IMG/VR virus record: IMGVR_UViG_3300048589_000504
Location: 6,609 to 70,608 of that record
From: a virus
Direction: 5' to 3' (one strand)
Length of the DNA stretch: 64,000 nt
Below the pieces are notes generated by a model, which did no database searches, was not told the DNA's origin, and saw nothing but the letters and a program-made list of their open reading frames with translations. Every line of letters starts with the position of its first letter. The first letter of the stretch is position 1. Of the stretch, positions 2,957 through 63,345 are shown piece after piece. The translations under genes and the position numbers were made by a program.

Positions 2957-3220
2957 ATGCCGAGAATAGTCAAGAACAGATCATCGGAACCATCTGAGCC
3001 GGTCAAGCCGCCAATCGTGGCCAACGAAGTGAACGCACTCGCGGCCCGCATCTCCCGCAAATATGGGGACGTGCCCGGCGCGGTCGTGGCCCTGATCGTC
3101 GCGCACGACGGGCCGGTCCAGTGCTGCATACAGGTCGGTGGCTTTGAGGTCGCGTATCAGACGGCCGCCACGATTGCCGAGGCTATGGCGCTGGCTGAAG
3201 CGGAAGCGTGCAACACATGA
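2957..3220 (+). CDS. hypothetical protein
   Basis: G-rich SD; stop overlaps the next start (ATGA). Confidence 0.55.
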   Translation: MPRIVKNRSSEPSEPVKPPIVANEVNALAARISRKYGDVPGAVVALIVAHDGPVQCCIQVGGFEVAYQTAATIAEAMALAEAEACNT

Positions 3221-3828: not shown

Positions 3829-3956
3829 CCATTAGTGAAAATCACGGCAAGTTTTCAGGAAGGAAAGAGTAAAACGCAGGATCAGCGAAGGTATGCATAT
3901 GCGGGGGTCGGTTTCGTGCGCTCGCGAACGTTTCGCAAAGGTTTACAGGGTTTTCT

Positions 3957-29476: not shown

Positions 29477-31618
29477 ATGTTAACCGATTGGCAGTTTTTC
29501 AAGCACAGCGGCAACCCCTCCGGCATACAGGACGGAGATGTATTCAGCATCTCCACCGATGGCGGGGAGAGGGGCACTTTTTTCAGATATCTGGAAGGCG
29601 TCACGGCCGGCCAGTTGGTGCGCTATACAGGCGGCTCAAGCGGCAGTACGCCGCAGACAAAGGTTCTGTTCTATAAAGGGAATACGTACACAAATAAAAG
29701 TGTCGATGTCGAGAGCGGCAATGTCGTCACTGTGCCCAGTGGCGTGAATAAGCTGCGTCTTGATCTGCGCAACTGGGGCGGCGGCGGCACGGCCGTTTGG
29801 GAGAATCCGCAGCTCGCGCTTGTTGACGATCCTGAACCTGAGCCGCCGACAGAGCCGGATGAGCCGGAACCCGATCCAGTTCCCGATCCACAGCCGGAAC
29901 CGGAGCCTGACCCTGAACCGGAGCCGCAACCCGATCCAACCCCTGAGCCACCGACGGGGCCGGTCTACTTTGTAGCCACAAATGGCAACGACAGCGTGAG
30001 CAAAGAAGCTAACAGCATCGACCGGCCGTGGAAAACGCTGCACCTGAGCGCCGCCAAACTATCGGCAGGTGACACGCTGTACGTGCGTGGGGGCACGTAC
30101 GCGCTCCCGGTTGATGGCGAGATAGCTATCAAAAAATCGGGCGTTACCATGTCCGCATATGACAATGAGACAGTCATGATTGATGGGCGTGCTACTTTCC
30201 ACCAGGCGCTTGGCATCAATTCCAGGGCCACGAATCCCGTGGGCACAACTGAATACGAGCCGCTTATTAGTGTTGAGGCTTCCGGCGTGACATTAAAGGG
30301 GTTGCGTATACGCGACAGCGGGGGGGAGGGTATCCGCATCAAAGGGTTAAACGGCACGGTTGACAACTGTCATGTTGATACGTCATTTGGGCCAGGCATT
30401 TCATTTTTGAGTGGTGGCAGCGGTCTGGCGAAAGATTCCTCTGTTACACGGGCCAGTCGCAAGGACAAGGGAGAGGCATTTCGGGCCAGGCTTGCATCAG
30501 GCCCCGTCACTTTTTTGCGCTGTAAGTGTTCGCACGGCGGGGCCGAGGGGCTTTGCTCTGTTCAGAGCGACGACGTTACGTTTCTGGACTGCGAGGCTTG
30601 GGATAATAACAAAGTCCAGGTTTATTTTGAGGGGTCGCGCCGTACCCGAATGGACGGGTGTCTAATCTACTGCACAAATGAAATTGAAAATGGCGGGTTT
30701 GAATACTCAGAAGGAATTCATATTGCATCAGAAATATACGATAACGCTGACGGTAGAGTATGGGTTTGTGAAGATATTGAAGTAACAAACACCCTGATTG
30801 TCGGGTGTGGCCCCAATCTATCCATCTCCGGTGGTAAGCACCGGGATAGGCCAGTAGATGTTTGGGGTCTGCGTAATTTTCGATTCTTTCACAATACTTT
30901 CGTCAATGCCCGTGCTAACGAAGGCATACTCATTGGCAACCAAATCCCTGCCGACAACAACAAAAATAACACGCCAAGTTGGTTTGTCAATAACATTATT
31001 GTGCAAGAGGGCAACCTGCCGATAGCCCGAACATTTACGGGGACGGATTTTTCAAAGTTCGTGTTTAGTCATAATGTATGGAGCAAACAGCCTTCCCCAG
31101 CCGATTTCTATAACGCTGCTACCGACAAGCTGGGAAACGCCGGCCTCAGCAATCCTCCGGCGATCCTTGAATCTCCGGCAGACATGCATGTCAGAGACTA
31201 CAAACTTACAGGCAGCAGCGCGGCCATCGCTGCGGGTACAAAAGCATACAACGCGGCGAGTGGTGTCAGTGTGAAGGTTGATTACTTTGACGCCCCGCTG
31301 AGCAGCCCGCCTGATGCGGGGTTCCACCAGTTTGGCGCAGTGCCACAACCGGAGCCCGATCCTGATCCAGTGCCCGATCCTGACCCTGAACCGGAGCCTG
31401 ATCCTGATCCAATCCCTGAACCCGATCCGGTTCCCGATCCTGATCCGCAGCCTGAACCGGTTGCGGCGAGTGGATACAGGATCGGCACGGCCGTTGTGCT
31501 TGTCATCCCGGCACTGGCTGACATGACAGCGCCGCTATTCGGTATGCAACTGTCAGTGCGCGGGGAATGGGTTGACGGCGAACTGCACTTGATCATCGAC
31601 CAGCTACAGGAGAGCTAA
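29477..31618 (+). CDS. right-handed beta-helix (pectin-lyase-like) protein, putative depolymerase/adhesin
   Basis: YFVATNGND...PWKTL...AGDTLYVRGGTY...HNTF..NNI...PDAG; Pro/Asp/Glu linkers on both sides. Confidence 0.8.
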   Translation: MLTDWQFFKHSGNPSGIQDGDVFSISTDGGERGTFFRYLEGVTAGQLVRYTGGSSGSTPQTKVLFYKGNTYTNKSVDVESGNVVTVPSGVNKLRLDLRNWGGGGTAVWENPQLALVDDPEPEPPTEPDEPEPDPVPDPQPEPEPDPEPEPQPDPTPEPPTGPVYFVATNGNDSVSKEANSIDRPWKTLHLSAAKLSAGDTLYVRGGTYALPVDGEIAIKKSGVTMSAYDNETVMIDGRATFHQALGINSRATNPVGTTEYEPLISVEASGVTLKGLRIRDSGGEGIRIKGLNGTVDNCHVDTSFGPGISFLSGGSGLAKDSSVTRASRKDKGEAFRARLASGPVTFLRCKCSHGGAEGLCSVQSDDVTFLDCEAWDNNKVQVYFEGSRRTRMDGCLIYCTNEIENGGFEYSEGIHIASEIYDNADGRVWVCEDIEVTNTLIVGCGPNLSISGGKHRDRPVDVWGLRNFRFFHNTFVNARANEGILIGNQIPADNNKNNTPSWFVNNIIVQEGNLPIARTFTGTDFSKFVFSHNVWSKQPSPADFYNAATDKLGNAGLSNPPAILESPADMHVRDYKLTGSSAAIAAGTKAYNAASGVSVKVDYFDAPLSSPPDAGFHQFGAVPQPEPDPDPVPDPDPEPEPDPDPIPEPDPVPDPDPQPEPVAASGYRIGTAVVLVIPALADMTAPLFGMQLSVRGEWVDGELHLIIDQLQES

Positions 31619-37931: not shown

Positions 37932-38173
37932 CAGACCGGCAAATCGCCACGCAGCACCGCGCAGGCTGGCGCTGGTCGTGTTTTCATGCGCGGCATGGAT
38001 GATTCTGCGTCTACGAACGTTTTACAACGTTGTGCGGCGTTTTTTGAGGATTCGAGAAAGCAAGAACCTTCGGCCAATTGGCCGGAAGTGGCGAGAGCGC
38101 GACCTTCCGCAATTCTTTGCGGGAGGTAGGAGAGTGAACCTAATGCCAATTGGCATTAGGTGAGGGAGAAGAC

Positions 38174-40981
38174 ATGGCATTCCTGAAAGTGAATGGATTC
38201 CATACCGCTGCGGCCGGAAGCCGCACGGATGGTATCGGCGATTTTCTGAGGCAGGTAGACGCGGCGGGCGTGCCTTTTCTGGCCTACTGCGTCGGCGGCA
38301 CGGCTAGCCTGATCGACGCGCAGAACATCATGCGCAGATCAAGCGTGCCGCATAACGCGATCTTCCGGCAGGATGTGTTCCCGCACAACCAGGGCGGAGA
38401 CGACGTGCCGGATTACAACAAGCCGCCCAAGCAGGCGGCGCAAGAGCAGTGGGAATCTCACGTGGCCCGCTGGCCGAGCGAGCTTGATCCGGCCCTGATC
38501 TGGGGCGAAACAGTCAACGAGTTGCGCAAGGAAGTCGAGTGGGCGGACTGGATTGGCGAGTTCTGCTATGAGACTGGCTTGTTAGCGGTCGCTTCCGGCC
38601 GTAAATGGTGCGGGCCAGGATACAGCGCGGGCACGCCGGACGAGGGCGCGTGGGAGACGCCGGGCATGCTCAAGTTCCTGCGTTTGTGCGCCGCGCATCC
38701 GGATCAGGTCGGCGTGGCCTTACACGAGTACAGTCTGGAACCGGAAGACCTCTGGCACAACAAAGGCTATCACATTGGCCGCTTTACGCAGCTCATCGCC
38801 GCCTGTGAGCGGCATGGCATTGCGCCGCCTACGATCTTCTTCACAGAATGGGGTTGGGGGGAGCGGGCCATTCCGGGCAACCGGCAAGATGCGCTCGACG
38901 AAATTCTGGAAGTCGGCGAACTGTACGCCAAGTATCCAAGCGTGAAAGGCGCGGCGATCTGGGCGCTGGACAATGGCTGGGGCGGGCTGGCCGACCAGGT
39001 GCATGGCCTGATGGAACCGCTTGCGCAATTGCTGACGACCACGCGCTATCCCGATCCGGTCACGACAAAGCCGCCTGCCGAAGGCTCGACTGAACCGCCA
39101 TACGGCACCGGCAACGCAGGCTCCGGCGCGCCGCGTGTGCAGTATAAGCGCCGCTATCTGGTCGCGCCGCAAGACTGCACGAAAGAGCAGTGGCTGCGCA
39201 TCGCTGAAGCTGCCTACGCCGGTCGCGTGACGATGGGCGGCTCCTACGATGACGCCGGAGTTGGCGCGTTGGCTGACAAGACGGCCGTGCTTTACGACCT
39301 GCAGGCCGCGCAGCATGACACGTTCGTAGCATGGTACGCGCAGCATTATCCCGGCACGAAAGTGGAGTTTGCGAGCAGTGACCCGGCCGCCAACGCGCCG
39401 ACCTTCACCATCCCGACCAAGCGCGCTGACATGCCGCTTGTCGTGGACATTTCCAAGTGGCAGGCGCGGGCGGTGAGCGGCGGCGGCTTCGCGACAGATA
39501 CCATCGACTGGCAGACGTTGCGCGACAGCGGCAACGTGCGCGGGGCGATTCTGCGGGCGTCTGTCGGGCTGGCCGTCGATCCGACGTACAGCGCCTTCGC
39601 CGGACAGGTGGACGCGCGCGGGCTGGCACGCGGCAACTACCACTTCCTGACCAACGACGACGGCGCGAAACAGGCGGCGCTGTTTCTGAAGCATCGCTTG
39701 CCCGGCGCGCTCGGTGACTGGCTGGACATTGAGGCATTGGCCGGAAAGCTGCCCGCTACGGCCGTGGTGCTGGATTTCGTCGCCGCGTATTTCAAGGCGA
39801 CTGGTAAGGCCATCGGCATCTATACCAACAGCGGGTCATTCAACCCGCTCGGCCTGACCCGCGCGCAGGTGCTCGGCGCGCAGCTTTGGGTAGCGAACTA
39901 CGTCGATTTGGACCGGCCGCTCTCTATTCCGGCCGCATGGAACGCCAAAGAATGGGGTGTGGACAACAGCGCGATCCGCTTCTGGCAGTACGCCGCCGGT
40001 CGCTTGCCCGGTTATGACCGCGATATCGATCTGAACGTCTTTCACGGATCGCATGAGGAATTCAGTCACCTGTTCGGTGAACCTACAGCGCCGGTTGTGG
40101 TCACGCCCACGCCGCCGGTTGCTACGCCCAAACCGACGAAGCCGGTCCTGCTCGGCTTGCACGCCGGAGCGGACGGCGGCGACATCGGCACGCTGGAAAT
40201 GCGCGAGTTTCAGACGCTGGCGCCGGGCGTGATTAAGGTTCTGTCCAGTTCATCTGAGTTCACCGTGCGCACATTGGCCGTCCAGCATCCAAAGGCCGCG
40301 TTCATCGTGCGCGCCTTTCTGGATATCGGCGGCAGGCCGGTCACGCCGGAACAGTTCGTTGACTGGACCTTGCCGGACGTGCGCAGATCGGTGAACGCAC
40401 TGGCCGGGCATGAGGTATGGGTAGAGCTGCACAATGAGCCGAACCTGACAATGGAAGGGCTGAAAGCGGCGTGGGCCAGCGGCGCGTATTTCAACATCTG
40501 GTATCTGAAGCTGCTCGGCCTGTATCGCAGGGCGCTGCCGGGCGGGCGCTTCCTGTTTCCGGGGCTGTCACCGGGCGGGGACATCGCCGGTATTCGTGAG
40601 GATAGTTTCGGATTCCTGACCGCTTGCGCGGGCGCGGTCAACGCTTCCGACGGCCTGGCGGTGCATGGCTACTTTGCGCCGCAATCCGGCTGGTCAATGG
40701 AGCGCACGCTGGATCAGATCGGGCCGGTCGCGAACCTGTTTGCGCACAAGGCGCTCTGGGTAACTGAGGCGAGTAACAACCAGCCCGGCGCGACACCGAG
40801 CGAGAAGGCGGCGCAGTACGTGCGCTTTGCTAAAGAGTTGGCCCGGTGGCCGAACGTGCGCGGCGTGACCTACTTTGTGGCGAGCGCCTCTAATCCGGCG
40901 TGGGGCTGGCAATCCGGCGGCAGCGCGGAAACGTGGGTCCCGGTCGGCATGGCGGCTCTTGTGAAGGAGCGTGGCGGGTGA
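38174..40981 (+). CDS. modular endolysin: glycoside-hydrolase-like barrel + GH25 muramidase + second GH-like barrel
   Basis: GH25 motifs VDISKWQ, NYHF, LDIE, IYT, LWVANY, FWQY, IDLN; flanking domains with NE/LHEY/FTEWG and HNEPN/HGY/VTEA. Confidence 0.8.
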   Translation: MAFLKVNGFHTAAAGSRTDGIGDFLRQVDAAGVPFLAYCVGGTASLIDAQNIMRRSSVPHNAIFRQDVFPHNQGGDDVPDYNKPPKQAAQEQWESHVARWPSELDPALIWGETVNELRKEVEWADWIGEFCYETGLLAVASGRKWCGPGYSAGTPDEGAWETPGMLKFLRLCAAHPDQVGVALHEYSLEPEDLWHNKGYHIGRFTQLIAACERHGIAPPTIFFTEWGWGERAIPGNRQDALDEILEVGELYAKYPSVKGAAIWALDNGWGGLADQVHGLMEPLAQLLTTTRYPDPVTTKPPAEGSTEPPYGTGNAGSGAPRVQYKRRYLVAPQDCTKEQWLRIAEAAYAGRVTMGGSYDDAGVGALADKTAVLYDLQAAQHDTFVAWYAQHYPGTKVEFASSDPAANAPTFTIPTKRADMPLVVDISKWQARAVSGGGFATDTIDWQTLRDSGNVRGAILRASVGLAVDPTYSAFAGQVDARGLARGNYHFLTNDDGAKQAALFLKHRLPGALGDWLDIEALAGKLPATAVVLDFVAAYFKATGKAIGIYTNSGSFNPLGLTRAQVLGAQLWVANYVDLDRPLSIPAAWNAKEWGVDNSAIRFWQYAAGRLPGYDRDIDLNVFHGSHEEFSHLFGEPTAPVVVTPTPPVATPKPTKPVLLGLHAGADGGDIGTLEMREFQTLAPGVIKVLSSSSEFTVRTLAVQHPKAAFIVRAFLDIGGRPVTPEQFVDWTLPDVRRSVNALAGHEVWVELHNEPNLTMEGLKAAWASGAYFNIWYLKLLGLYRRALPGGRFLFPGLSPGGDIAGIREDSFGFLTACAGAVNASDGLAVHGYFAPQSGWSMERTLDQIGPVANLFAHKALWVTEASNNQPGATPSEKAAQYVRFAKELARWPNVRGVTYFVASASNPAWGWQSGGSAETWVPVGMAALVKERGG

Positions 40982-44604: not shown

Positions 44605-45600
44605 CTAAAGTATAACGCCATTCTCAAAGGCTGAATCGACACTGTATTCAGGCAGGAAGTAAGCATAGCTTTCGCGCGTCGTCTCTGCACTGACATGGTT
44701 AAGAATTTCCTGAACCGCTTCCAGCCCAACGCCATTCTGCAACATCGTAGCGGCGCGGTAATGCCGGATGTGATGTGGCGTGACACGGCCGTCCAGGCCA
44801 AGCGTCCGCATGGGCCGCTTGATTGCATTGTAAATTGAGGTAACGCTCAGGCGCTTGCCGTCGCTGTTGCGCGAGTGAGAGACAAACAGTGCCTCATTCG
44901 TGTCGGTTCGTTCGCTCAGGTACGCTCCCAGCGCGGGCACGGCGCGGCTGCTCCCATTGCGCAGCAAGCGCAGAACGTGCGGCCGGTTGCCCTTGCCTTT
45001 CACGCTCACAAGACGGCCGTCTTTCAATGCGGCGAAATCGGAGCGCGTCAATCTGCCCACTTCGGCCGTGCGTGCGGCCGTTTCGTACAGTGTCCAAAAC
45101 AGCGCAGTATCTCGCAGCGCAGTCAGGCGACGGCCAAACGAGTCGTCTTCGGTTGGCGGTTCTAATACTTCAAAGTAGGCTCTGAGCTTCGGGATGCCAT
45201 CCATCCATAACTCGTGATACAGTACGCGGTCGCGCCATGTGCGATCTGGCGGAAGTGGCGCTTCCTTACGGATTCTGTTATCAAGCGCGTCAAAATTGAT
45301 GATTGGTGCGCCGCCTACTTCACCGACGACAAAGTGCAGGTAACGAGAAACTACCGTCCAGTAGGTATTGATCGTTTTGCCCTTTGAGTATTCATCGCTC
45401 AGATGCAAGCGAAACGCGAAGGCGGTTTCGCCACTTAACGGGCGCTTACCGGCCTCGGAACAAAATTTCTCGAACTTGCGGAGTGCGGATTTGTAGGTTA
45501 AAAACGTCTTTCCCTTGTCAATGTACTGATCAAGAAACTCGCCAGAGTACGGAAGACTCGCCCCGCCCTGCTGTTGTGATGTAGAATGGTTGCTATTCAT
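44605..45600 (-). CDS. tyrosine recombinase (integrase/Xer-like)
   Basis: Catalytic set R (TAARTAE), K (KGK), HxxR (HHIRH), H (LNH), Y; GGAGG SD. Confidence 0.9.
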   Translation of the reverse strand: MNSNHSTSQQQGGASLPYSGEFLDQYIDKGKTFLTYKSALRKFEKFCSEAGKRPLSGETAFAFRLHLSDEYSKGKTINTYWTVVSRYLHFVVGEVGGAPIINFDALDNRIRKEAPLPPDRTWRDRVLYHELWMDGIPKLRAYFEVLEPPTEDDSFGRRLTALRDTALFWTLYETAARTAEVGRLTRSDFAALKDGRLVSVKGKGNRPHVLRLLRNGSSRAVPALGAYLSERTDTNEALFVSHSRNSDGKRLSVTSIYNAIKRPMRTLGLDGRVTPHHIRHYRAATMLQNGVGLEAVQEILNHVSAETTRESYAYFLPEYSVDSAFENGVIL

Positions 45601-45723
45601 GGTTGCACCTCCGTTGTGCACTGTGGGTCACGCTCAGGGATGGTGAGACATCGCCTGAGCACTTCGTTAATACACCCATAATTATAGCACGTTTGTTCGG
45701 GAAGATGAAGTAATTGACGGCTA

Positions 45724-51745: not shown

Positions 51746-51811
51746 TAACTAATTGACCGGTTCATGGCCGCAATCTTTACACGTCAATAACCACGTGATA
51801 TACTGCCGGTT

Positions 51812-52201
51812 ATGAAGTGGATTGCCGCGTTCCTTATCACTTTCGCCCTTGCCTTCATTTTTGGCGCTCTCTCTGTCGTTGCCGACAACCCCCTGCTCGA
51901 CGCAGCCGCGTCGGCTATTGCCCCCACGCCGCCCGATCCATACCAGCAATTACTCGACGCTCGCGCCGCAGAAGGCAGCAGCGTGCCGCTGTTCGTGGCC
52001 GCCGCGCTCATGGGCGTGGTGCTGGTCGGTATCGGCTGGTACGCGCTTTCGGAGCGCACGACCAAGACGCTGCGCGCCTTCAACACCGCGCGACGACCGG
52101 TGCGCACACGCCGCGTTCAGCCGCTGCAACAGGACCAGTACCAGCCCGCGCAGTTTCAACCGATCCAACCCATCGCTCTTCCTGAAGTATCGGAGGTCTA
52201 G
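51812..52201 (+). CDS. membrane protein
   Basis: Signal/TM segment plus a second TM; co-oriented with the ATPase gene. Confidence 0.65.
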   Translation: MKWIAAFLITFALAFIFGALSVVADNPLLDAAASAIAPTPPDPYQQLLDARAAEGSSVPLFVAAALMGVVLVGIGWYALSERTTKTLRAFNTARRPVRTRRVQPLQQDQYQPAQFQPIQPIALPEVSEV

Positions 52202-52204
52202 CCG

Positions 52205-53854
52205 ATGAAACAATTCGCCACGCTTGCCGCGTTCTTCGCCCTGCTGCTCCTTGCCGGATGCGCGCCCGCGCCGACCGGCAGCAGCCAGGCCGCCTACGTC
52301 GCCCTACCCGCGCAGGACGCCGCCGACGCGCGGGCCACGATTGCCGCGGCCGACATCGCGATTCAGGCGACGCGAGAAGTCGGCGCGCAGCAGACGGCCG
52401 TCGCGGTCGATGCGACGCGGGCATGGATCGCCGCCGCAACCGCTGAGGCGCAGGCGGCGACGCGGCAGGCGCAGGCCACGACGCAGGCACTGCAAGGCCA
52501 GCAGACAGTTGTCGCCTTACAGATGGCGGTAGACGAAGCCACGCGCGTCGCGCAGGCCGAGCAGACGGCCGTCGCGGTCACAATTGCCGCTGAGCAGGCG
52601 CGCGAAGAGCTGCGCGCCGGAAACACGCTCATGCTGCGTCAGGCCGAAGAAGAGCGGATGCAGTCCGGCATCTTTTGGCGTAACGTGTTCAATGGCCTGC
52701 TGGCGACGTTGCTGTTTGCCGGTGTTCTCTCGCTGCTCATGATCGCCGGGTCGGTTGTGGCCCGCGTTCGTTCGCTGAACGATAATCCAGTCCGGCAGTA
52801 CAACGACAGCGACGCGCAGATTAACATCCTCGTCGTGCCAAATGGCTTGTTCGGCACCGACGTGCGGCAGATCGGACGGCCGTCTACAGTCGTGCCGCAG
52901 CTCCCCCCGCCCTCGATCCCGCAACTACCCGCGCCGCTGCGCGAACTGCCGGAAATCCAGATCGGCCATGTGTTGGTTGCCGGACAAAGCGGATCGGGCA
53001 AGAGCAGTGTCATGCGAGCGATCATCCGCCACCGCCAAAACGTGGTTGTGCTCGATCCACACGCGGCGCCAGGTGAATGGAACGCCGCTCGCGTCATCGG
53101 CATGGAAGGCAACTTCGACGAGATCGCCGACTTCTTCGGCTGGATGGACGCCGAACTGGATCGGCGCATGGGCCTGCGCGGGCGCGGTGAGCAATTGGAT
53201 TTTGATCCGATGACTGTCGCTACTGACGAAATGCCTGCTATTGTGGATCGGCTTGGGCGCGACGTGGCAAACTCGGCGTGGGTTTCGTGGGTGCGACAAG
53301 GGCGCAAGTACGGGCTGTTCGTCATGATCTCCACGCAATCGACGCGAGTGAAGTCGTTGGGGATCCCCGGCGAGGGCGACCTGGTCAAGCAATTTGAAGC
53401 GGTGATCAGCCTCGGCACTGAGGCGACCGACAACTATCGCACCCTGCTCAATACCGCGCCTCCCGGCAAGGCCGTGCTTCAACTGGCCGGGCAAGCCCCG
53501 CGCGTGATCCGCGTGCCGAACGTGCCCGCCTTTGCCGGGGCATCCGGCTCCCCTGCCGGGGCCAGCTTTGCGGCCGGCAGATCGCAAAATGGCGGGAATG
53601 GCTACGCAGGCAGCGCCGCGTCTGATCTGTTCCGGCCTCGTGCGGACGCGCCGGTCGTGGTGGAGCAAGGCGGTGGGATTGACACGCCGCATGGATTCGT
53701 GACCGCTGCTGAGGTCGATGAGATTTTGCACTACGGCCGTAATATGTCTTCGCTGCGCGGCGTGGCGTACAATGTATACGGCTCCACCGGCGGCGCGGGA
53801 TTTTACAAGACGCGGGCGGTGCTAGACCGGCATGGCGTTGCGCCGGGCGCGTAG
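52205..53854 (+). CDS. lipoprotein-anchored FtsK/HerA-superfamily (TraB/SpoIIIE-like) ATPase
   Basis: Lipobox LLAG|C, Ala/Thr/Gln helical stalk, TM, HVLVAGQSGSGKS, VATDE, RQGRKYG, STQ, C-terminal HTH-like segment. Confidence 0.8.
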   Translation: MKQFATLAAFFALLLLAGCAPAPTGSSQAAYVALPAQDAADARATIAAADIAIQATREVGAQQTAVAVDATRAWIAAATAEAQAATRQAQATTQALQGQQTVVALQMAVDEATRVAQAEQTAVAVTIAAEQAREELRAGNTLMLRQAEEERMQSGIFWRNVFNGLLATLLFAGVLSLLMIAGSVVARVRSLNDNPVRQYNDSDAQINILVVPNGLFGTDVRQIGRPSTVVPQLPPPSIPQLPAPLRELPEIQIGHVLVAGQSGSGKSSVMRAIIRHRQNVVVLDPHAAPGEWNAARVIGMEGNFDEIADFFGWMDAELDRRMGLRGRGEQLDFDPMTVATDEMPAIVDRLGRDVANSAWVSWVRQGRKYGLFVMISTQSTRVKSLGIPGEGDLVKQFEAVISLGTEATDNYRTLLNTAPPGKAVLQLAGQAPRVIRVPNVPAFAGASGSPAGASFAAGRSQNGGNGYAGSAASDLFRPRADAPVVVEQGGGIDTPHGFVTAAEVDEILHYGRNMSSLRGVAYNVYGSTGGAGFYKTRAVLDRHGVAPGA

Positions 53855-53876: not shown

Positions 53877-54095
53877 TTGAGCATGCAAACTGACATGGCG
53901 GCCGCCAACGAAGCCATGCTAGAGATTGCCGTCAACGCGGCTGCGGCCGGGCATGACCTCAGCGGCTTCGAGCCTGTAGAGGATGCGGACGGCCGTGCGA
54001 ACGGCTGGCAAGCACGGTGCAGGATTTGCGGCATGACCGCGTGGGTTGGTCTGAACGGAGTGCAATACAGCCTGTTAGAGGATGTTTGCGAATGA
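53877..54095 (+). CDS. small hypothetical protein
   Basis: GHDL...CRICG...C. Confidence 0.5.
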   Translation: MSMQTDMAAANEAMLEIAVNAAAAGHDLSGFEPVEDADGRANGWQARCRICGMTAWVGLNGVQYSLLEDVCE

Positions 54096-55759
54096 CAAAG
54101 CCGATCACCCGCAACACGCTCTTCTACGGCGACAATCTAGGCGTTCTGCGCAACTATGTGCCAGATGAGAGCGTTGATCTTGTCTATCTCGATCCGCCGT
54201 TCAATTCCAAGCGCACTTATAACGTCCTGTTCAAGCAAGAAAGCGGGGAAGAATCCGAAGCGCAGATCGCCGCGTTTGATGACACTTGGCACTGGGATCA
54301 ATCCACGGCCGCGCAGTATCACGAATTGATCACCGAAGCGCCCGATCATATCAGCCGCATGATCGGGGCCATGCGGGAATTCATCGGCACGAATCAGATG
54401 ATGGCCTATCTGGTCATGATGGCCGCCCGCCTGATCGAACTGCACCGCGTCCTCAAACCCACCGGCAGCCTCTACCTGCACTGCGACCCGACGGCCAGTC
54501 ACTACCTAAAAGTTGTCCTGGATACAATTTTTGAGCCGCAAAACTTCACAAATGAAATTATCTGGAAGCGCACAAACACGCACAATGATGCAACGACAAA
54601 GTTCCCAGATGTAGCAGATATTATCTTGCTATATTCAAAATCAAGAAAGAGCTTGTTTATTCCACAGCATTCAGAACATGATCCGAAATACATTAAGAAT
54701 TTTTATCGTCATGATGATAATGACGGACGGGGTCCATACACCTTAGATAATATGGCAAGTCCTAATCCACGCCCTAACATGATGTATGATTGGAAGGGCT
54801 ATCCATACCCAACAATGGGCTGGCGTTACCAGGAAGAAACGATGGCCAAATTGGATCAGGAAGGGCGAATTTATTATCCCAAAAACAAAGACGGTTCTTT
54901 TGACACCACCAAAAGGCTAAGGTTAAAGCGCTATCTACATGAGCAGCCGGGTCCAGTTATCGGGAACGTTTGGACAGATATATCCCCTGTATCTGCTCAT
55001 GCCACAGAGCGTTTAGGATACCCTACGCAGAAACCTATAGAACTTCTGGAACGCATCATCTCCGCCAGCAGCAACCCCGGCGACGTCGTCCTCGACCCGT
55101 TCTGCGGCTGCGGCACGACCATCGCCGCCGCCCAAAAGCTGGAGCGCCGCTGGATCGGCATCGACATCACCCACCTCTCGATCACGCTCATGAAATATCG
55201 CCTGCAAGAGATGTTCCCCGACGCCGAATTCGCCATCATCGGCGAGCCGGCCGACCTGGACGGCGCGCGCCGCCTGGCCGCGCAAGACCGCCACCAGTTT
55301 GAATGGTGGGCGCTGTCGCTGGTCAAGGCACGGCCGTCCGGCGGCGCAGCGGGCAGCAAGCGCGGCAAAAAAGGCGCGGACCAGGGCATCGACGGCGTGA
55401 TCACCTTCATCGACGACGCCGGCGGCGCGCCCAAACGGATCATCGTGCAGGTCAAAAGCGGCCACGTCAAAAGCGGCGACATCCGCGACCTGGCCGGCAC
55501 CATCGAGCGCGAGAAGGCCGCTATGGGGATATACATCACGCTTGAAGAGCCAACGAAGCCAATGATTACTGAAGCGGCTTCGGCCGGGTACTATCACTCG
55601 CCGGGCTGGAATCAAGACTATCCGCGAATTCAGATTCTAACGATCCGGGAGCTGCTCAACGGCGCGGCTGTAAAGATGCCGCCCGCAGGAATGACCTTCA
55701 AGCAAGCGGAGCGAGTGAAGGAATCGGGGGCAGTCCAGAAAGGTTTGTTCGATGGCTGA
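54092..55759 (+). CDS. N6/N4 DNA methyltransferase fused to Mrr-like endonuclease domain
   Basis: YLDPPFN, YPTQKP, VLDPFCGCGT; C-terminal FE...ADQGIDG...VQVKSG. Confidence 0.88.
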   Translation: MTKPITRNTLFYGDNLGVLRNYVPDESVDLVYLDPPFNSKRTYNVLFKQESGEESEAQIAAFDDTWHWDQSTAAQYHELITEAPDHISRMIGAMREFIGTNQMMAYLVMMAARLIELHRVLKPTGSLYLHCDPTASHYLKVVLDTIFEPQNFTNEIIWKRTNTHNDATTKFPDVADIILLYSKSRKSLFIPQHSEHDPKYIKNFYRHDDNDGRGPYTLDNMASPNPRPNMMYDWKGYPYPTMGWRYQEETMAKLDQEGRIYYPKNKDGSFDTTKRLRLKRYLHEQPGPVIGNVWTDISPVSAHATERLGYPTQKPIELLERIISASSNPGDVVLDPFCGCGTTIAAAQKLERRWIGIDITHLSITLMKYRLQEMFPDAEFAIIGEPADLDGARRLAAQDRHQFEWWALSLVKARPSGGAAGSKRGKKGADQGIDGVITFIDDAGGAPKRIIVQVKSGHVKSGDIRDLAGTIEREKAAMGIYITLEEPTKPMITEAASAGYYHSPGWNQDYPRIQILTIRELLNGAAVKMPPAGMTFKQAERVKESGAVQKGLFDG

Positions 55760-56534
55760 TAAAGAGCTGCAAACACTGGATCAAAAAACAGTCGATTTCT
55801 ACGGCGACGAATTGGCGGCGGCCCGCCTTGATGACGGCCGTATCTACGCCAGTCTGCGGCATATGTGCCAGGCGCTAGATATTGACACAACAGGCCAGCG
55901 GCAGCGGATCAACCGGCACAAGGTTCTCAATTCGGGGCTAGGGGTTTGCAAATTACAAACCCCTGGGGGATTGCAAGATTCTTACGTGCTGCGCGTCGAT
56001 CTGGTTCCGCTATGGTTGACTGGCATCCGTACAAGCGCAGTCAATGAGACAGTCCGACCGAAACTGGAAAAGTTTCAGGAAGAGGCGGCTGCCGTTTTAT
56101 GGGAGGCGTTCCAAGAAGGGCGACTAACTGCCGATACATCATTTGATGATCTGCTGGCCAGCGACAGCCCGACAGCCCAAGCCTACAGAATGGCTCAAGC
56201 GGTGATGACACTGGCACGGCAGCAGCTCCTAATTGAAAGCCGCGTCGTCAACGTGGAAGGTCGCTTGGAGTTGATCGAAGCGCAGCTGGGCGCCTCAGAT
56301 CGGTTTGTTACCGAGGACCAGGCCAGCCAGATCAGCCAAGCCGTGAAAGCGGTGGCAATGGTTCTGAGCAAGGCCAGCGGCACGAATCAATACGGATCAG
56401 TGTATGGCGAGCTGTATCGGAAGTTTGGCATCACCTCATACAAGCAGCTCCCGGCCGCAAGGTTCGAGGAAGCAATGGCATTTCTTACTTCTCGTTTCCG
56501 ATACCACTCGGCGCTGCTAATGTACTTGCTGTAA
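55752..56534 (+). CDS. antirepressor (P22 AR-N-like + ORF6C-like)
   Basis: VDFYGDEL...LRHMCQALDID...QRQRI; VYGELYRKFGITSYKQLPAARFEEA. Confidence 0.8.
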   Translation: MADKELQTLDQKTVDFYGDELAAARLDDGRIYASLRHMCQALDIDTTGQRQRINRHKVLNSGLGVCKLQTPGGLQDSYVLRVDLVPLWLTGIRTSAVNETVRPKLEKFQEEAAAVLWEAFQEGRLTADTSFDDLLASDSPTAQAYRMAQAVMTLARQQLLIESRVVNVEGRLELIEAQLGASDRFVTEDQASQISQAVKAVAMVLSKASGTNQYGSVYGELYRKFGITSYKQLPAARFEEAMAFLTSRFRYHSALLMYLL

Positions 56535-56644
56535 CCTTTCATCGTTTCAATCCATTGTCACCTCAATTTTTACTATCCTTGCCCAGGCAAGCCACGCCGG
56601 GCCTTGCCCAGCATCGCCCCGTCAGGCCTCACCCCGCCTTGAAC

Positions 56645-56790
56645 GTAAAACAGCCACCCTTTACTTCGTAAGTTGTTGAGGCCTACGGCGGTGGTCCCGC
56701 TCAAGCAAAGGGTGGCTGTTTTGCCACGAAGTATTAAGTTTTCATTCAGCGGGTACAAAAACACCACCGCATTCCGTAAGCCTCAACAAA
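56645..56790 (-). ncRNA. candidate structured leader/small RNA
   Basis: Five complementary segment pairs downstream of promoter TTGACT-N16-TATAAT (56822-56795). Confidence 0.55.
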
Positions 56791-56888
56791 AATAATTATA
56801 GCACGGCCGTTCCAGTAGTCAACAACCAAACCGCATGATATTAATGATCGCATCTCCACAGTTAATCAATCAACTTAACTCTGGAAAG

Positions 56889-56922
56889 CAAAAGGCCCAA
56901 CCGGTGATGGTTGGGCCTTTTG
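56889..56922. terminator. bidirectional intrinsic terminator
   Basis: CAAAAGGCCCAACC-N6-GGTTGGGCCTTTTG. Confidence 0.75.
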
Positions 56923-56925
56923 TAT

Positions 56926-57104
56926 TTCAGGCGCTACGGCCGTCTCCGCCCGCGCTTTTGCCCGCTTTTGTAGCGCTTGCGGTAGCGCTTCAAGGGCGCT
57001 TCTGCTCTCTGTAGCGGCCGCTACAGGCCGCTTCACATGCGCTTCAGGCGCAGCGGTCCGTAGCGGGCCGGAAGCGCCTGCTGTAGCGGGCATTTTCAGG
57101 CGCT
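56926..57104. repeat. helically phased CGCT(T/A) array
   Basis: CGCTW at 56932, 56953, 56963, 56974, 56986, 56997, 57019, 57029, 57040; inverted AGCG at 57052, 57062, 57073, 57085. Confidence 0.6.
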
Positions 57105-57145: not shown

Positions 57146-57173
57146 TTGACATATCATGTATACATGATATACT
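57146..57173 (+). promoter_or_regulatory. promoter with perfect 20-bp operator palindrome
   Basis: TTGACA-N16-TATACT; ATATCATGTATACATGATAT at 57151-57170. Confidence 0.8.
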
Positions 57174-58596: not shown

Positions 58597-58768
58597 CCCT
58601 GCCCAGGCCGCGCAGAATGGCCGCTGCCGCGTCGAGGCGTAACAGCGGCATAATTCCTTAGATCGTTGCGCCACTCTCTTTTTAAGGGTATTGTATACAA
58701 CGTTTACAGAGTTACGCCTGTATCCGGCAGAAACAGGCGTAGACAATGCACATAATAGGGAGATACCT

Positions 58769-59575
58769 ATGGCGAAAATCTACGCAGTAATGAACAGAAA
58801 AGGCGGCACCGGCAAGACGACGACGGCGATTGCGTTGGCGCAAGGGCTGGCCCGCCGCCGCTACGAGGAAGGATACACCGGTGATACGGCCGTGCTGCTG
58901 GTGGACCTTGACCCGCAAGGGCACGTTGCCGGTTCGCTCGACCTGGACACCGGCGGCCGCTGCCTGAGCCAGTTCTTTCTTGACCGATCCAACTATGGGC
59001 GCGTGCTTATGCGCGCCGCCAACGAAAGCCATGCGCGGCGTGGCATGTGGGTTGTTCCAGCTACCGATAACTTGACCGAGGCGAAGCGCGCCTTGATTGT
59101 GAATGGAAAGATCGACGACGCGCTGGAATGGGCACTTGGCGAAACGCGCAAGCTCTTTGAGTACATCGTGCTCGATTGCCCGCCGACGCTGGACTTCCTT
59201 CAGACGGCCGTCTATCGCTTTGCCGATCTCGCCGTCGTGCCGGTACGTGCCGACTACCTGTCGCTCAATGGCGCAATGCAGCACACGCGCGACATCGTGG
59301 CCGCGCAGCAAGCGGGCAGCAAGATCGCGATCAAGGCGCTTGTCCCGACCTTCTTCGACACGCGGATCAACCAATGCAGCGCAGTGGTGAGCAGACTAAT
59401 CGAGGTGTACGGCCGTGACAAGGTGACAGTACCGATTCCGAGCACGATCCGCGTGGCCGAAGCACCGGAGTATGGCATGACAGTATTCGAATACGCCGAA
59501 AGCCGGAGCAGCGACAACATGGCCCAGATCGCGGCAATGGCCTACAACAGGGTAGTAGAGAGGGTGATGATATGA
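58769..59575 (+). CDS. parA: ParA/Soj-family partition ATPase
   Basis: NRKGGTGKTT, LVDLDPQG, IVLDCPP, RVAEAP.G; GGGAG SD. Confidence 0.92.
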   Translation: MAKIYAVMNRKGGTGKTTTAIALAQGLARRRYEEGYTGDTAVLLVDLDPQGHVAGSLDLDTGGRCLSQFFLDRSNYGRVLMRAANESHARRGMWVVPATDNLTEAKRALIVNGKIDDALEWALGETRKLFEYIVLDCPPTLDFLQTAVYRFADLAVVPVRADYLSLNGAMQHTRDIVAAQQAGSKIAIKALVPTFFDTRINQCSAVVSRLIEVYGRDKVTVPIPSTIRVAEAPEYGMTVFEYAESRSSDNMAQIAAMAYNRVVERVMI

Positions 59576-59895
59576 GCAGTGACGACATTGATAACGCATT
59601 GGGCAGCATTGCAAACCGAGCGCCAGGCTCACGCATCGGCAAGGAAAAGGTAGAGCAGCCGGTCGCGCGGCAGGCGACGCGCACGACCGAGAAAACCATC
59701 GTCTATTCTGTGCGCCTACCGGAAGCATTCGCTGCGCACACCCGGCAGATCGCGAAGCAGTTCGGGATCAGCGAGGCCGAGGCGAAAAGGGCGATCATCT
59801 ATCGGGGAGTGCAGGCGTACATGATTGACAAAGAGCAGCTCGAAACCGAGTTCACCACCAAAGTCGTAGCAGTACGGCCCAGCGATCTAGCCTAA
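59572..59895 (+). CDS. putative ribbon-helix-helix centromere-binding partner of ParA
   Basis: ATGA-coupled to parA; flexible N-terminus then YSVRLPE...IAKQFGISEAE. Confidence 0.6.
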   Translation: MSSDDIDNALGSIANRAPGSRIGKEKVEQPVARQATRTTEKTIVYSVRLPEAFAAHTRQIAKQFGISEAEAKRAIIYRGVQAYMIDKEQLETEFTTKVVAVRPSDLA

Positions 59896-62099: not shown

Positions 62100-63107
62100 A
62101 TGGATACGGCAACGGTCAAGAGCATTGAAGACGTTTGGCAGGATACGCTTAATGAATTGAAGCTACAGATGACGCGGGCGACGTTCGACCAGTGGCTCGC
62201 GTCATCTACGGCCGTCCAGTTGTGGGGCAATGAGCTTACCATTACTGTCGTCAACGAAATGGCGCAGGACTGGCTCATGCACCGGCTGCGGGACACGATA
62301 GAGCGCACGCTGAGCGCAGTAGCGGGGGAGGCTATGACAATCAAGATCGTTACCAGAAGTGATGTGGAGCAGGAGGCGCTCTTGCGCATGCCGCCGGTGG
62401 CTACGGTGGTTTATGACGCGACGCTGACAAGGCATCAGCCACCGCCGCCGCCCGCGCCGAACGATCCGGCGGTGTACGGCCGTTCGGACGCGGAGCTGCG
62501 CGCAAGCATAGAGGCGCGCAGGAACGCGGGTATGAATGGCAGCCAGAGCGGACATCTGAATGGCAGCGGCAAGGGCCACCAAATCGAGGATGACGACGAA
62601 ATAACCATCACGCGCAGCGAAGAGGGTGATCCAGACGCAGCCTTTATGCAGATCGGGCATTACGCGGTTCGGTTCTGGCGGCCGTATCTGGGGCGCACGG
62701 CATTTGATTTGTGGGAGGTGCTTACCACCTACCAGTACGGCATGGAAAACTGGAAAGAGAAAGCGCCGCACAACTCGACCCTTCTGCGCAAGATAGGAAT
62801 CCAGAATCGGCAATCGCTGGAAGAGGCGATCATCGACTTGGAACGTGAAGGTATTTTTAGCTTCCGGCGCGAGATGAAAGACGACGATCCACGTACCGCG
62901 AAATGCTACTATGACGATTTCAAGCCGCTGGATGTTCGCTATGGCGGCGGCCGGCTGCTGAGCTATGAGCAGCACCTGCGCCTGACGCCCCCGGACCAGA
63001 AAGAGCACATTCGTTATCTGAAGAAGTACGTCAAGAAAGGCCGGTTCGACATGCGGGCCTGGCGCAGCGGCGCGCCGCGCAGCCAGTGGTTGATCGAGCG
63101 TGAATAG
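62100..63107 (+). CDS. replication initiator with DnaA domain I and C-terminal HTH-like domain
   Basis: VWQDTLNELKLQMTRATFDQWL...QDWLMHRLRDTIERTL; YAVRFWRPYLG; iterons follow. Confidence 0.75.
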   Translation: MDTATVKSIEDVWQDTLNELKLQMTRATFDQWLASSTAVQLWGNELTITVVNEMAQDWLMHRLRDTIERTLSAVAGEAMTIKIVTRSDVEQEALLRMPPVATVVYDATLTRHQPPPPPAPNDPAVYGRSDAELRASIEARRNAGMNGSQSGHLNGSGKGHQIEDDDEITITRSEEGDPDAAFMQIGHYAVRFWRPYLGRTAFDLWEVLTTYQYGMENWKEKAPHNSTLLRKIGIQNRQSLEEAIIDLEREGIFSFRREMKDDDPRTAKCYYDDFKPLDVRYGGGRLLSYEQHLRLTPPDQKEHIRYLKKYVKKGRFDMRAWRSGAPRSQWLIERE

Positions 63108-63172: not shown

Positions 63173-63345
63173 ATGTTACATCCTACGTACACGTTTAGAA
63201 TGTTACATCCTACGTACACGTTTAGAATTTCAAATGTTATACGTGGTGTACACGTTTGGATCAGATGTTACACCTGACGTACACATTTACAGATAAAAGA
63301 AATAAAAGAAATAAAGGTGCAAAAGAAAGTTGTTATCTTTTTCTT
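63173..63345. repeat. iteron array plus AT-rich tract: putative replication origin
   Basis: ATGTTACATCCTACGTACACGTTTAGA twice exactly (63173, 63200) plus degenerate copies at 63234 and 63265; ATAAAAGAA repeats at 63293-63315. Confidence 0.8.

Follow-up and report, generated by a model that had tools for sequence, protein, structure and literature searches.

Can a tailed phage encode a machine that moves its own genome between the cells of its host without the production of virions? The question is raised by a locus at positions 51,812-53,854 of a 64,000-nt stretch of viral DNA, referred to here as the window, which corresponds to bases 6609-70608 of the 70.6-kb linear IMG/VR record IMGVR_UViG_3300048589_000504, estimated to be about 70% complete. 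The locus consists of a gene for a small membrane protein of 129 aa and, directly downstream, a gene for a predicted membrane-anchored ATPase of 549 aa, called the pump in what follows. A preliminary description, based on the letters of the window, had taken the pair for a TraB/FtsK-like translocase of a phage-plasmid. In the excerpted text of two published accounts (PMC4447253, PMC5365140), TraB is described as an FtsK-like hexamer which forms a membrane channel, binds peptidoglycan and pumps a double-stranded DNA (dsDNA) plasmid into a neighbouring cell; its C-terminus recognises clt, a locus of 8-bp repeats, and small membrane proteins, named Spd, help it to spread the plasmid across septal cross-walls. 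The reading tentatively preferred here, with its full chain of steps rated a little short of an even chance, is that the phage protein is a TraB-like, sequence-directed dsDNA pump acting on the DNA of its own element, movement between cells included. It is preferred because the same list of parts is found: a motor, a C-terminal domain, a repeat array, small membrane-protein genes and carriage by elements resembling the actinomycete integrative and conjugative elements (AICEs).

The 129-aa gene, the 549-aa gene and an array of GTAGCG repeats would together form a TraB/clt-like translocation module of a temperate tailed phage. Its features are the following.

51776-51804, plus strand: promoter-like site TTTACA-17-TATACT with TG, a pattern match from a consensus scan
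51812-52201, plus strand: small membrane protein of 129 aa, ending 3 nt before the ATPase start
52205-53854, plus strand: open reading frame (ORF) for the 549-aa FtsK/TcpA-like ATPase
52205-52261, plus strand: lipoprotein signal peptide with lipobox LLAGC and Cys19, as read from the sequence
52262-52702, plus strand: extracytoplasmic helical stalk rich in Ala, Thr and Gln, aa 20-166 (about 147 aa), from the AlphaFold2 model
52703-52783, plus strand: single transmembrane (TM) helix, aa 167-193
52784-52939, plus strand: Pro-rich, disordered cytoplasmic linker, aa 194-245 (predicted local distance difference test, pLDDT, below 60)
52940-53551, plus strand: RecA-fold ATPase core, aa 246-449 (pLDDT above 90)
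53669-53851, plus strand: C-terminal beta-hairpin and three helices, aa 489-549, a candidate sequence-recognition domain
56931-57089, no strand assigned: seven GTAGCG(C/G) repeats in both orientations, the proposed cognate clt-like cis site

The ATPase starts with MKQFATLAAFFALLLLAGC, a lipobox. Its homologues, 67 of which were found at E<=0.001 by a word-indexed search, all come from metagenomes or metagenome-assembled genomes (MAGs), and none bears an informative name. Alignment A1 has 48 rows, made up of the window protein and 47 of the 67 matches, fragments and near-duplicates having been removed by eye. Cys19 is invariant in it, and a lipobox pattern occurs among the first 45 residues in 63 of the 67 homologues. 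In the AlphaFold2 model, built on the same alignment (mean pLDDT 75.6), a signal helix is followed by helices at residues 37-98 and 107-193, the second one continuing into the TM segment; the stalk, with a pLDDT of 40-85, tentatively takes the form of a hairpin of two antiparallel helices, each about 60 residues long. The lipobox Cys and the TM helix are a median of 149 aa apart (interquartile range 143-159) in 95 long-form relatives, in which the stalk is composed of 29% A, 12% T and 11% Q. Because its length is conserved while its sequence is of low complexity, the stalk looks like a spacer of fixed reach, as these figures suggest. Exactly one TM helix lies between the lipobox Cys and Walker A in 88 of the 95 long forms, and the spacing from TM helix to Walker A has a median of 73 aa. 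The lipobox, the extracytoplasmic helical stalk and the TM helix of the preliminary description are thus all borne out by the relatives.

The membrane in which such a protein would sit depends on the host, which is probably a member of the Chloroflexota (see below). In five genomes of the host type Omp85/BamA was found in none, the control being positive in 7 diderm genomes, while Lgt was found in all five, so that monoderm hosts are probable. In that case lipid anchor and TM helix should share one membrane, and the stalk should stand in the wall as a hairpin of about 9 nm, which fits the two antiparallel helices of the model. A spanin-like bridge between two membranes (a unimolecular spanin) was also considered, and was rejected on the same Omp85 (0/5) and Lgt (5/5) counts.

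The motor carries Walker A as GQSGSGKS (K266 invariant) and Walker B as VATDEMP (D341 and E342 invariant); several arginines are also invariant in A1, and an FtsK-like block, REGRK..STQSTRV, is conserved in it (written out, REGRKvGLF..STQSTRVKTLGI). Foldseek searches of the PDB with the core returned TcpA of plasmid pCW3 (E 2.6e-8), the FtsK motor (E 1e-7) and then EccC/EssC. The VIA comparison, which is independent of Foldseek, placed TcpA first (Z 17.6 over 199 residues, root-mean-square deviation 3.5), followed by EccC (15.5/15.3), FtsK (15.0), HerA (14.3), TrwB (13.5) and VirB4 (13.4), all of them covering about residues 238-455. According to the model, the motor is an FtsK-class member of the FtsK/HerA P-loop ATPases, as had been proposed: the Walker motifs are conserved, the core fold matches that of FtsK-class motors, and the structural matches are headed by a conjugation protein, TcpA, and by FtsK.

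Sequence libraries gave much less. Among Pfam families, AAA_16, Zeta_toxin, FtsK_SpoIIIE and DUF87 (19.8 bits) matched the P-loop only and below their cut-offs; NCBIfam gave P-loop-level matches far under cut-off, PADLOC weak partial ones, and a sequence-profile search of the PDB with the pump protein P-loop-level matches only. Some relatives bear precomputed PF01580 or PF01935 matches. The sole PHROG match of the ATPase is to phrog_2666, 'terminase large subunit' (E 5.1e-7, residues 255-379 only). A role as packaging motor was nevertheless rejected, as in the preliminary description, since a canonical large terminase (TerL, 4511-6403) is encoded by the phage alongside genes for portal, protease, major capsid and tape measure, and since the protein is a predicted membrane lipoprotein with a stalk facing the wall.

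The C-terminal tail is separated from the core by a disordered linker (aa 451-488 in the model). Its beta-hairpin and three helices span residues 492-542, with a pLDDT above 90 in the full model and of 87 when folded alone, and an invariant GG precedes the last helix (alignment A3). Foldseek with this domain found nothing below E 1. By VIA the best Z scores were 5.0-5.3, in a list made up mostly of tri-helical, helix-turn-helix (HTH) DNA-binding domains (GcrA, Tc3 transposase, Myb, NtrC1), with which the modelled tail is compatible. Of the HTH-like tail noted earlier, the three-helix domain is confidently modelled, and its identity as an HTH is plausible, not proven.

The 129-aa protein has an N-terminal signal or TM segment (4-22), about 35 aa outside, a TM segment (57-75) and a basic, Q/P-rich tail; the two hydrophobic segments agree with the two-TM gene that had been noticed at 51812-52201. 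At least 6 of the 19 ATPase genes examined, counting the one in the window, have a small ORF of this topology (126-153 aa) that touches or overlaps their start. The analogy with Spd proteins, which the preliminary description had drawn, is one of position only. Alignment by hhalign of the 129-aa protein with the small upstream proteins of five relatives gave a probability of 31 (E 5e-4), too weak for homology, and the protein has no match in Pfam, PHROG, PADLOC or NCBIfam. The promoter-like site in front of the gene, at 51776-51804, is divergent from a minus-strand promoter-like site at 51745-51718.

In order to place the family more broadly, 1.84 billion cluster representatives were searched with a profile, which returned 3299 sequences at E<=1e-3, 1628 at <=1e-10 and 286 at <=1e-30. 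Among the new rows within the best 150, the long forms (about 480-650 aa) carry lipobox and stalk, 33 of 43 fitting the strict pattern and several of the remaining 10 bearing variant lipoboxes on inspection; the shorter forms (about 330-480 aa) mostly have a single N-terminal TM segment instead. A metagenome scan with the single protein found no close relatives, and one based on the alignment yielded 29 loci. Of 15 loci found in one-genome-per-species contigs, 13 belong to Chloroflexota MAGs (Anaerolineae, Ardenticatenaceae/Ardenticatenia, Candidatus Trichofilum, Chloroflexia), while the remaining two, both partial matches, come from a Nanoarchaeota bin and a Flavobacteriales bin. The nearest ESM Atlas clusters are commonest in Chloroflexota and Uroviricota, and the integrase of the window clusters with those of the Chloroflexota loci L006, L009 and L010 (L numbers denote loci carrying relatives of the pump). 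As the relatives lie in Chloroflexota MAGs and the integrases cluster in this way, the host of the phage is probably a Chloroflexota bacterium. Chloroflexota lineages of this type are largely multicellular filaments. The filamentous host of the preliminary description would fit these lineages.

Deposited plasmids add a second group of relatives. Searching 72,556 plasmids by tblastn found 19 records, of which 16 are cyanobacterial (Nostoc 8, Pseudanabaena 2, Annamia 2, and one each of Tolypothrix, Calothrix, Moorena and Kovacikia) and 3 from Streptomyces. A 390-aa ORF (2957-4129) of pCC7120zeta, a 5.6-kb plasmid of Nostoc sp. PCC 7120, was aligned by hhalign over 252 columns spanning both motor and C-terminal tail (probability 99.7, E 4.8e-26). 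With the 660-aa Tra-like protein of pSGL1, a Streptomyces plasmid of 7.2 kb, the alignment is limited to the motor (probability 93.9, E 1.5e-7, 185 columns) and supports the TraB-likeness claimed for it. Homologues that include the C-terminal tail are encoded by small cyanobacterial plasmids (5.6-20 kb), where they are annotated as hypothetical or ATP-binding proteins.

The chief result of the analysis concerns the sequence that follows the ATPase gene. A local scan for repeated k-mers showed that, in most related loci, dense arrays start within a few bases of the ATPase stop. Four examples are given here.

L011, 4227-4373: GTAGCAC, 11 copies (ATPase stop at 4221)
L012, 2012-2200: GTAGC-type, 18 copies (stop at 1973)
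L020, 3025-3141: GGTAGGAC-type (stop at 3016)
L021, 10916-11119: TAGTCGGAC-type (stop at 10918)

Within 250 nt after the stop of 20 ATPase genes, GTAGC was counted 85 times on both strands, where 7.3 copies were expected from the rest of each locus: 18 in L012, 15 in L011, 8 each in L003b and L009, 6 in L006, 5 each in L004 and L008, and 4 each in L002, L005 and L013. Variant motifs take its place in other loci, GTAGAG in L003a, L007 and L014 and GGTAAC in L010 and L019. A 6-mer repeated at least 5 times follows the stop in 10 of the 20 genes. The 29 metagenome loci served as an independent set, 3 of them, with less than 150 nt downstream of the stop, being left unscored: at least 5 repeats were found in 11 of 26 loci, versus 5.2% of 813 background windows (binomial P 2.8e-8); this background was measured on the second set and reused for the first. 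The motif types recur in the independent set, with CGCTAC reaching 21 copies in L062 and 11 in L060. The recurring types are GTAGCG/GTAGCA, GTAGAG, GGTAGG, AGTCGG and GGTAAC; in the family as a whole the repeat units are of 6-9 bp and mostly of the GTAGC type.

Beyond the array, the next gene differs from locus to locus (recombinase, ParA, anti-repressor or host genes), and only the ATPase is constant; for this reason the array is taken to go with the ATPase. A hint of matching between protein and DNA comes from the sequences of L020 and L021, whose motors are near-identical, while the last tail helix reads GGRAFYVIRQ in one and GGQAGQVIRR in the other, with repeats of GGTAGGAC versus TAGTCGGAC; tail helix and repeat motif may thus co-vary in this pair.

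In the window, no GTAGC follows the ATPase stop directly. Seven of the 19 GTAGCGS sites of the window fall within 159 nt (Poisson P about 1e-13), and this stretch (56931-57089, CGCTAC/GTAGCG x7), which carries the commonest motif of the family, is the densest 6-mer cluster in the window. The proposal that an array at 56926-57104 is the site of the ATPase gains strong support from the relatives, in which the same GTAGC-type repeats lie directly 3' of the gene, so that it stands as a candidate site. Three genes lie between pump and array.

53877-54095: ORF of 72 aa, between the pump gene and the methylase gene
54017-55759: methylase (N6_N4_Mtase, E 5.6e-46) fused to a C-terminal domain like Mrr_cat/NA-iREase1
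55752-56534: P22-type anti-repressor (Ant)

In L020 and L021 the anti-repressor gene follows the array. These gene orders are most simply explained if, in the lineage of the window, accessory genes entered between pump gene and site. As a separate observation, the methylase probably starts at about 54092, overlapping the stop of the 72-aa ORF.

The position of the pump in this accessory early region, beside a methylase-Mrr-like fusion and an anti-repressor and with its own promoter-like site at a divergent control region, could also be read in terms of superinfection exclusion or defence, in which the membrane ATPase of the prophage would, at the membrane, block phage or plasmid DNA on its way in or expel it. 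Other phages are known to have lipoproteins that act in exclusion, and the PADLOC model mad8 matches weakly (E 2.4e-6 for the window protein, 7.4e-10 for the homologue in L004), as do HerA models. These PADLOC matches are, however, limited to the P-loop region or far from full length, and no defence-type partner is conserved, the methylase standing beside the ATPase in the window only (with a fragment in L021). A cognate array on the element's own DNA would not be expected for an exclusion protein, and the same gene is found in elements with Rep, Xis and integrase. An exclusion role is for these reasons judged improbable.

In order to see which elements carry the gene, neighbouring ORFs (greedy longest-ORF calls) were clustered across 21 loci and the representatives were scanned against family libraries. 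Six MAG loci (L002, L004, L005, L007, L008 and L013) share a DUF3854 protein (about 755 aa), an HTH_17 protein, a DUF2637 protein, a small two-TM protein, the ATPase and a large serine recombinase. The HTH_17 protein (about 67 aa) is Xis-like and the DUF2637 membrane protein carries a winged helix; DUF3854 proteins are plasmid replication proteins in cyanobacteria, according to an excerpt of PMC10079941. By their gene content, these loci carry the set that characterises an AICE, namely integrase, Xis, Rep and a single FtsK-like gene, so that the Streptomyces parallel drawn at the outset is supported by relatives in AICE-like modules of integrase, Xis, Rep and membrane proteins. A serine recombinase also follows the ATPase in L003a and L014, which were placed in the AICE-like group for the tree. 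The DUF2637 gene lies directly upstream of the ATPase in the viral locus L019 as well; a tblastn search of the plasmids with the DUF2637 protein of L004 gave zero matches, and a full-text literature search found no work joining DUF2637 with conjugative.

The pump gene occurs in six phage records, the window included, which range from 46 to 69% G+C and share few other genes. All five other virus records have homologues of tail-region genes of the window, and four of them a homologue of its tape measure; a related TerL is present in one of the five, and the capsid protein of the window and PF05065 have no matches in them. The phage nature of these five records rests on the tail-gene homologues and on the classification of the collection. 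Prophages are represented by the MAG loci L006 and L003b, which have tape-measure genes nearby, and by L009, in which the gene clusters next to the pump are those of L003b.

A maximum-likelihood tree of the motor region was computed with IQ-TREE (LG+C20+F+G4, by posterior mean site frequencies, PMSF) from 81 rows, comprising 20 locus proteins and 61 matches; P0067, matches below 480 aa and one row without Walker A were left out. The eight copies adjacent to a serine recombinase form one clade (ultrafast bootstrap 100, Shimodaira-Hasegawa-like approximate likelihood ratio test 97, present in 100% of bootstrap trees). The phage and prophage copies sit on several deep branches, at least 3 label changes being needed for the six phage copies and at least 2 for the three prophage copies; the window groups with P0001, P0004, P0007 and P0005. 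The association of the pump with phages is broad, and not the result of one recent capture. Because the root is a midpoint one, no direction of transfer is claimed.

The layout of a gene followed directly by its repeat array is the classical one of Rep and iterons, and an alternative is therefore replication or membrane tethering, in which the tail of the ATPase would bind iteron-like repeats and organise the replication of the element at the membrane. Homologues on very small cyanobacterial plasmids (5.6-6.4 kb) are in keeping with this. Yet a DUF3854 Rep distinct from the ATPase, with an array of its own, is encoded by the AICE-like elements; a Rep-like gene with internal repeats likewise exists apart from the ATPase in the prophage loci L003 and L006, and a further ORF of pCC7120zeta, of 468 aa, is a possible Rep. 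Replication has no use for an extracytoplasmic stalk of conserved length, and the fold is nearest to translocases, not initiators. This explanation is considered quite improbable. In L004, where a distinct array (ACCTGGC x6) follows the Rep gene, the GTAGC array is for that reason probably not a replication origin.

Other arrays were noted at L003 8111-8320 and L006 3916-4122, with 10-11 copies of a 7-10-bp unit (AAAGGCGGAA) inside a Rep-like gene (HTH_36 and DnaA_N); these are possibly iterons within coding sequence. An array of GTCACAA, again with 10-11 copies of a 7-10-bp unit, lies at L009 6018-6277. The Rep-like proteins of L003 and L006 bear a C-terminal DnaA_N domain, as does a 335-aa protein of the window (62100-63107, DnaA_N E 8.4e-10). 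This protein was one of ten further window ORFs scanned with Pfam, the other nine having no match.

The first place of TcpA among the structural matches raises the possibility that the pump is, like TcpA, the coupling protein of a type IV-like secretion system, handing DNA to a channel encoded elsewhere, by the host or another element. A lead in the same direction is a 678-aa protein (L004 1485-3518, also in L005) which in the ESM Atlas resembles the coupling proteins (VirD4/TraG) of type IV secretion systems (0.96, 23 of 30 matches) and whose family is multi-copy in 3 of the 4 host genomes searched. This Atlas lead is not backed by sequence, the protein having no match in Pfam, PHROG, PADLOC, NCBIfam or, by phmmer, PDB sequences, and TcpA stands just 1-2.6 Z units above FtsK and EccC. 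The VirB4 families PF12846 and PF03135 were found in none of five phage records carrying the gene, some of which are incomplete; the pump would therefore have to do without a type IV system. Upstream of the L004 element, a stretch of 18 kb contains a type I restriction-modification system and an insertion sequence, with no match to type IV secretion Pfam families in the 10 ORFs scanned. A coupling role is accordingly rated the least probable of the alternatives.

The most serious alternative is connected with the lifestyle of the phage, whose main genes outside the module are listed here.

39-1355: ParB-like (ParB-like/methylase-like) protein, at the opposite end of the window from ParA
4511-6403: large terminase (phrog_38, E 6.6e-39)
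6419-8455: portal, beside the terminase (strong PHROG match)
17539-24174: tape measure, 2211 aa (strong PHROG match)
44605-45621, minus strand: tyrosine integrase (Phage_integrase, E 1.8e-23)
58691-59575, plus strand: ParA-like ATPase (AAA_31 E 8e-27, CbiA E 1e-14), a possible functional associate of the pump
59572-59895: ORF of 107 aa overlapping the ParA 3' end, a possible centromere-binding partner

A head protease and a major capsid protein are also encoded in the window, with strong PHROG matches. On the strength of terminase, portal, protease, capsid and tape measure the phage is classified, from its genes, as a siphovirus-like tailed phage, and the presence of integrase, ParB-like and ParA-like genes marks it as temperate. 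From these three genes, the prophage could be integrated, a plasmid or both. The term phage-plasmid, used in the preliminary description, is thus supported by the ParA-like and ParB-like genes and qualified by the tyrosine integrase, which is present as well.

A promoter-like site at 57146-57173 (TTGACA-16-TATACT), just beyond the array, overlaps a perfect 20-bp palindrome, ATATCATGTA|TACATGATAT, at 57151-57170, which looks like an operator heading the rightward operon towards ParA.

With these genes at hand, the pump could be a septal segregation motor, working like FtsK/SpoIIIE at closing septa and, together with ParA, bringing an episomal prophage into both daughter cells; the array would then be a loading or centromere-like site, and the outcome would be inheritance, not spread. 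Septal segregation with ParA explains the same data nearly as well as transfer does. The motor has an FtsK-class fold, the window encodes a ParA-like protein with the overlapping 107-aa ORF as well as a ParB-like protein, and 9 of 49 loci have a ParA homologue 0.2-2.4 kb downstream of the ATPase, the distance being just 0.2-0.3 kb in L059, L061, L065 and L066. A promoter-like site that leads to ParA follows closely on the array in both L018 and the window. In the AICE-like loci L002, L004, L005, L008 and L013, by contrast, array and ATPase occur with no ParA within the loci examined, and nothing in FtsK corresponds to the lipid-anchored stalk that spans the wall. Nor is an episomal state established, the window encoding an integrase too. 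Cellular FtsK/SpoIIIE already carry out septal segregation, and no plasmid is known to need a motor of its own for this purpose. On balance segregation is held to be rather unlikely, and exclusion or defence, replication and type IV coupling are less likely than it.

Returning to the preferred reading of a TraB-like pump, the following chain of steps is proposed. The 549-aa protein would be exported and lipid-modified at Cys19, as its sequence, the model and the host genomes indicate. Lipid anchor and TM helix would both be held in the monoderm cytoplasmic membrane, with the helical hairpin of about 9 nm reaching into the wall, and the cytoplasmic FtsK-class domain would, by homology, assemble into a ring, presumably a hexamer. 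The conserved adjacency of gene and array suggests that the C-terminal three-helix domain reads the GTAGCG repeats on the phage genome. By analogy with TraB, the motor would then pump the dsDNA of the element through membrane or septum into the neighbouring cell of the filament, and the phage would gain the spread or maintenance of its genome along the filament without producing virions.

Several findings weigh against this chain. The motor lacks an FtsK alpha domain, its structural matches being confined to residues 238-455, and PF01580 (FtsK_SpoIIIE) reaches 19.2 bits against a cut-off of 24, over residues 247-274 only. The tail is not recognisable as an FtsK-gamma or TraB-type winged helix, and one TM helix per subunit makes for a thin channel. 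The small upstream gene is missing from many loci, and its likeness to Spd genes is one of position. The array of the window lies 3 kb downstream of the pump gene, with the 72-aa ORF, the methylase fusion and the anti-repressor in between, and, being just upstream of the promoter-like site that leads to ParA, it could be a partition centromere or an operator; the ParA homologues after the ATPase in 9 of the 49 related loci fit segregation as well as transfer. As the AICE-like copies form a single nested clade, the plasmid-like context may be secondary. The likeness of the 678-aa protein to type IV coupling proteins would, if confirmed, complicate the picture of a single translocase, and the probable Chloroflexota host is deduced from relatives of the phage proteins.

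How far the parts correspond to those of known systems can be judged by comparison. As in the TraB/clt systems of pSVH1, pIJ101, pSG5 and AICEs such as pSAM2, as far as the excerpted accounts describe them, a membrane-anchored FtsK-class motor with a small C-terminal domain is found with an array of short repeats on the same element (about 8 bp in clt), small membrane-protein genes lie alongside, and compact elements with integrase, Xis and Rep are among the carriers. The correspondence extends to a membrane-associated N-terminus (lipobox and TM helix) followed by an FtsK-like motor, the form of the anchor being different, and to the presence of a short-repeat array as such. The probable hosts, like Streptomyces, are multicellular filaments. 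Kinship with TraB at the sequence level is confined to the motor (29% identity over 185 columns with pSGL1). Unlike TraB, the pump has a lipobox, a helical stalk of about 147 aa and one TM helix in its N-terminal region, and a predicted tri-helical tail that is at best a candidate winged HTH; its repeats occur in both orientations, its carrier is a tailed phage, and its phylum is Chloroflexota.

With TcpA of Clostridium perfringens pCW3, the pump shares the core fold (Z 17.6) and the nature of a membrane-anchored ATPase related to conjugation. TcpA works with the Tcp type IV-like apparatus (excerpt of PMC5365140), whereas the phage records with the pump have no VirB4-type gene; TcpA also lacks a lipobox, a stalk and a known repeat array. 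The likeness to FtsK/SpoIIIE, with their KOPS (FtsK orienting polar sequences) and SRS (SpoIIIE recognition sequences), lies in the motor fold (Z 15.0) and in a small C-terminal domain, in the pump a candidate reader of short DNA words. Unlike FtsK proper, the pump has a single TM helix after its lipobox in place of a four-TM N-domain, and neither FtsK_alpha nor FtsK_gamma is detected by Pfam; the structural matches of the Atlas to full FtsK have TM-scores of 0.26-0.43, and the DNA words of the pump are clustered in one array, not spread chromosome-wide.

Streptomyces phages Mandalore, Naboo and Geonosis also encode an FtsK-like protein, of unassigned role, and infect a filamentous host (bioRxiv 10.1101/2024.02.16.580700, PMC11536984); the excerpted descriptions of these genes mention neither a lipoprotein anchor nor a cognate array. 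Since the window protein has no tblastn match at E<=1e-3 in 50,697 deposited phage records, the pump family is distinct from these genes at the sequence level. TdtA, the transjugation donor translocase of Thermus thermophilus ICEth1, is likewise an FtsK/HerA-class ATPase on a mobile element; in the excerpt of PMC5365140, it is described as hexameric and as pushing donor DNA out, and its gene adjoins an N4/N6 methylase gene, as in the window. The same source describes TdtA as HerA-like, without secretion signal or DNA-binding tail, and in need of NurA and a restriction enzyme, in all of which it differs from the pump. The 390-aa protein of pCC7120zeta is a true homologue in motor and tail with an N-terminal hydrophobic segment, but has no lipobox and no stalk.

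The excerpted accounts describe dsDNA transfer by a single FtsK-like protein of the TraB type for mycelial actinomycetes (PMC4447253, PMC5365140), and a full-text literature search found nothing on TraB-type transfer in Chloroflexota. While the TraB/clt principle is known, novelty would lie in the lipoprotein stalk, in the tail, in the phylum and most of all in the carriage by a phage, with a function that is predicted by analogy. If the preferred reading holds, the TraB-type mechanism extends to a second, perhaps a third, phylum of filamentous bacteria, and tailed phages, in addition to plasmids and integrative elements, carry such a module, so that the line between infection and conjugation is blurred; the unexplained FtsK-like genes of actinophages would also gain a candidate function. 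Given the homologues on cyanobacterial plasmids and the TraB proteins of Streptomyces, single-protein dsDNA transfer might then be a general trait of multicellular filamentous bacteria, and not a peculiarity of actinomycetes. A wider proposition, namely that temperate phages of filamentous Chloroflexota routinely carry a conjugation-like module as a second, virion-free route, that this module is exchanged with AICE-like elements, and that single-protein dsDNA transfer is general to multicellular filamentous bacteria, is regarded as doubtful. A DNA pump that is phage-encoded, spans the wall and is directed by sequence would be a novelty even if its role were segregation. The tail (aa 489-549) and the GTAGCG array provide a protein-DNA pair for testing.

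Some further features of the window were recorded. Between the anti-repressor gene and the array, nested inverted repeats (56647-56666/56703-56722 and 56673-56688/56774-56789, within 56640-56830) adjoin a strong minus-strand promoter-like site (56822-56795, TTGACT-16-TATAAT); they could correspond to a small structured RNA transcribed leftwards, with no Rfam match, Rfam and tRNA scans of the window having given zero matches. They are followed, at 56881-56930, by a G+C-rich inverted repeat of 22 nt (86% complementary, 6-nt loop) with runs of T on both sides, which looks like a bidirectional terminator separating the repeat array from the anti-repressor gene. A 713-aa ORF (29477-31618) contains 30- and 36-bp tandem repeats (29862-29951 and 31358-31458) coding for peptide repeats rich in Pro, Asp and Glu, and probably encodes a tail fibre or host-recognition protein. 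A 943-aa protein (38150-40981) with a central endolysin-like domain (phrog_291, E 1.2e-23), which is kept in all five other phage records, is probably a tail-associated wall hydrolase. An intergenic, perfect 27-bp tandem repeat of 2.1 copies is found at 63173-63228, towards the right end of the window.

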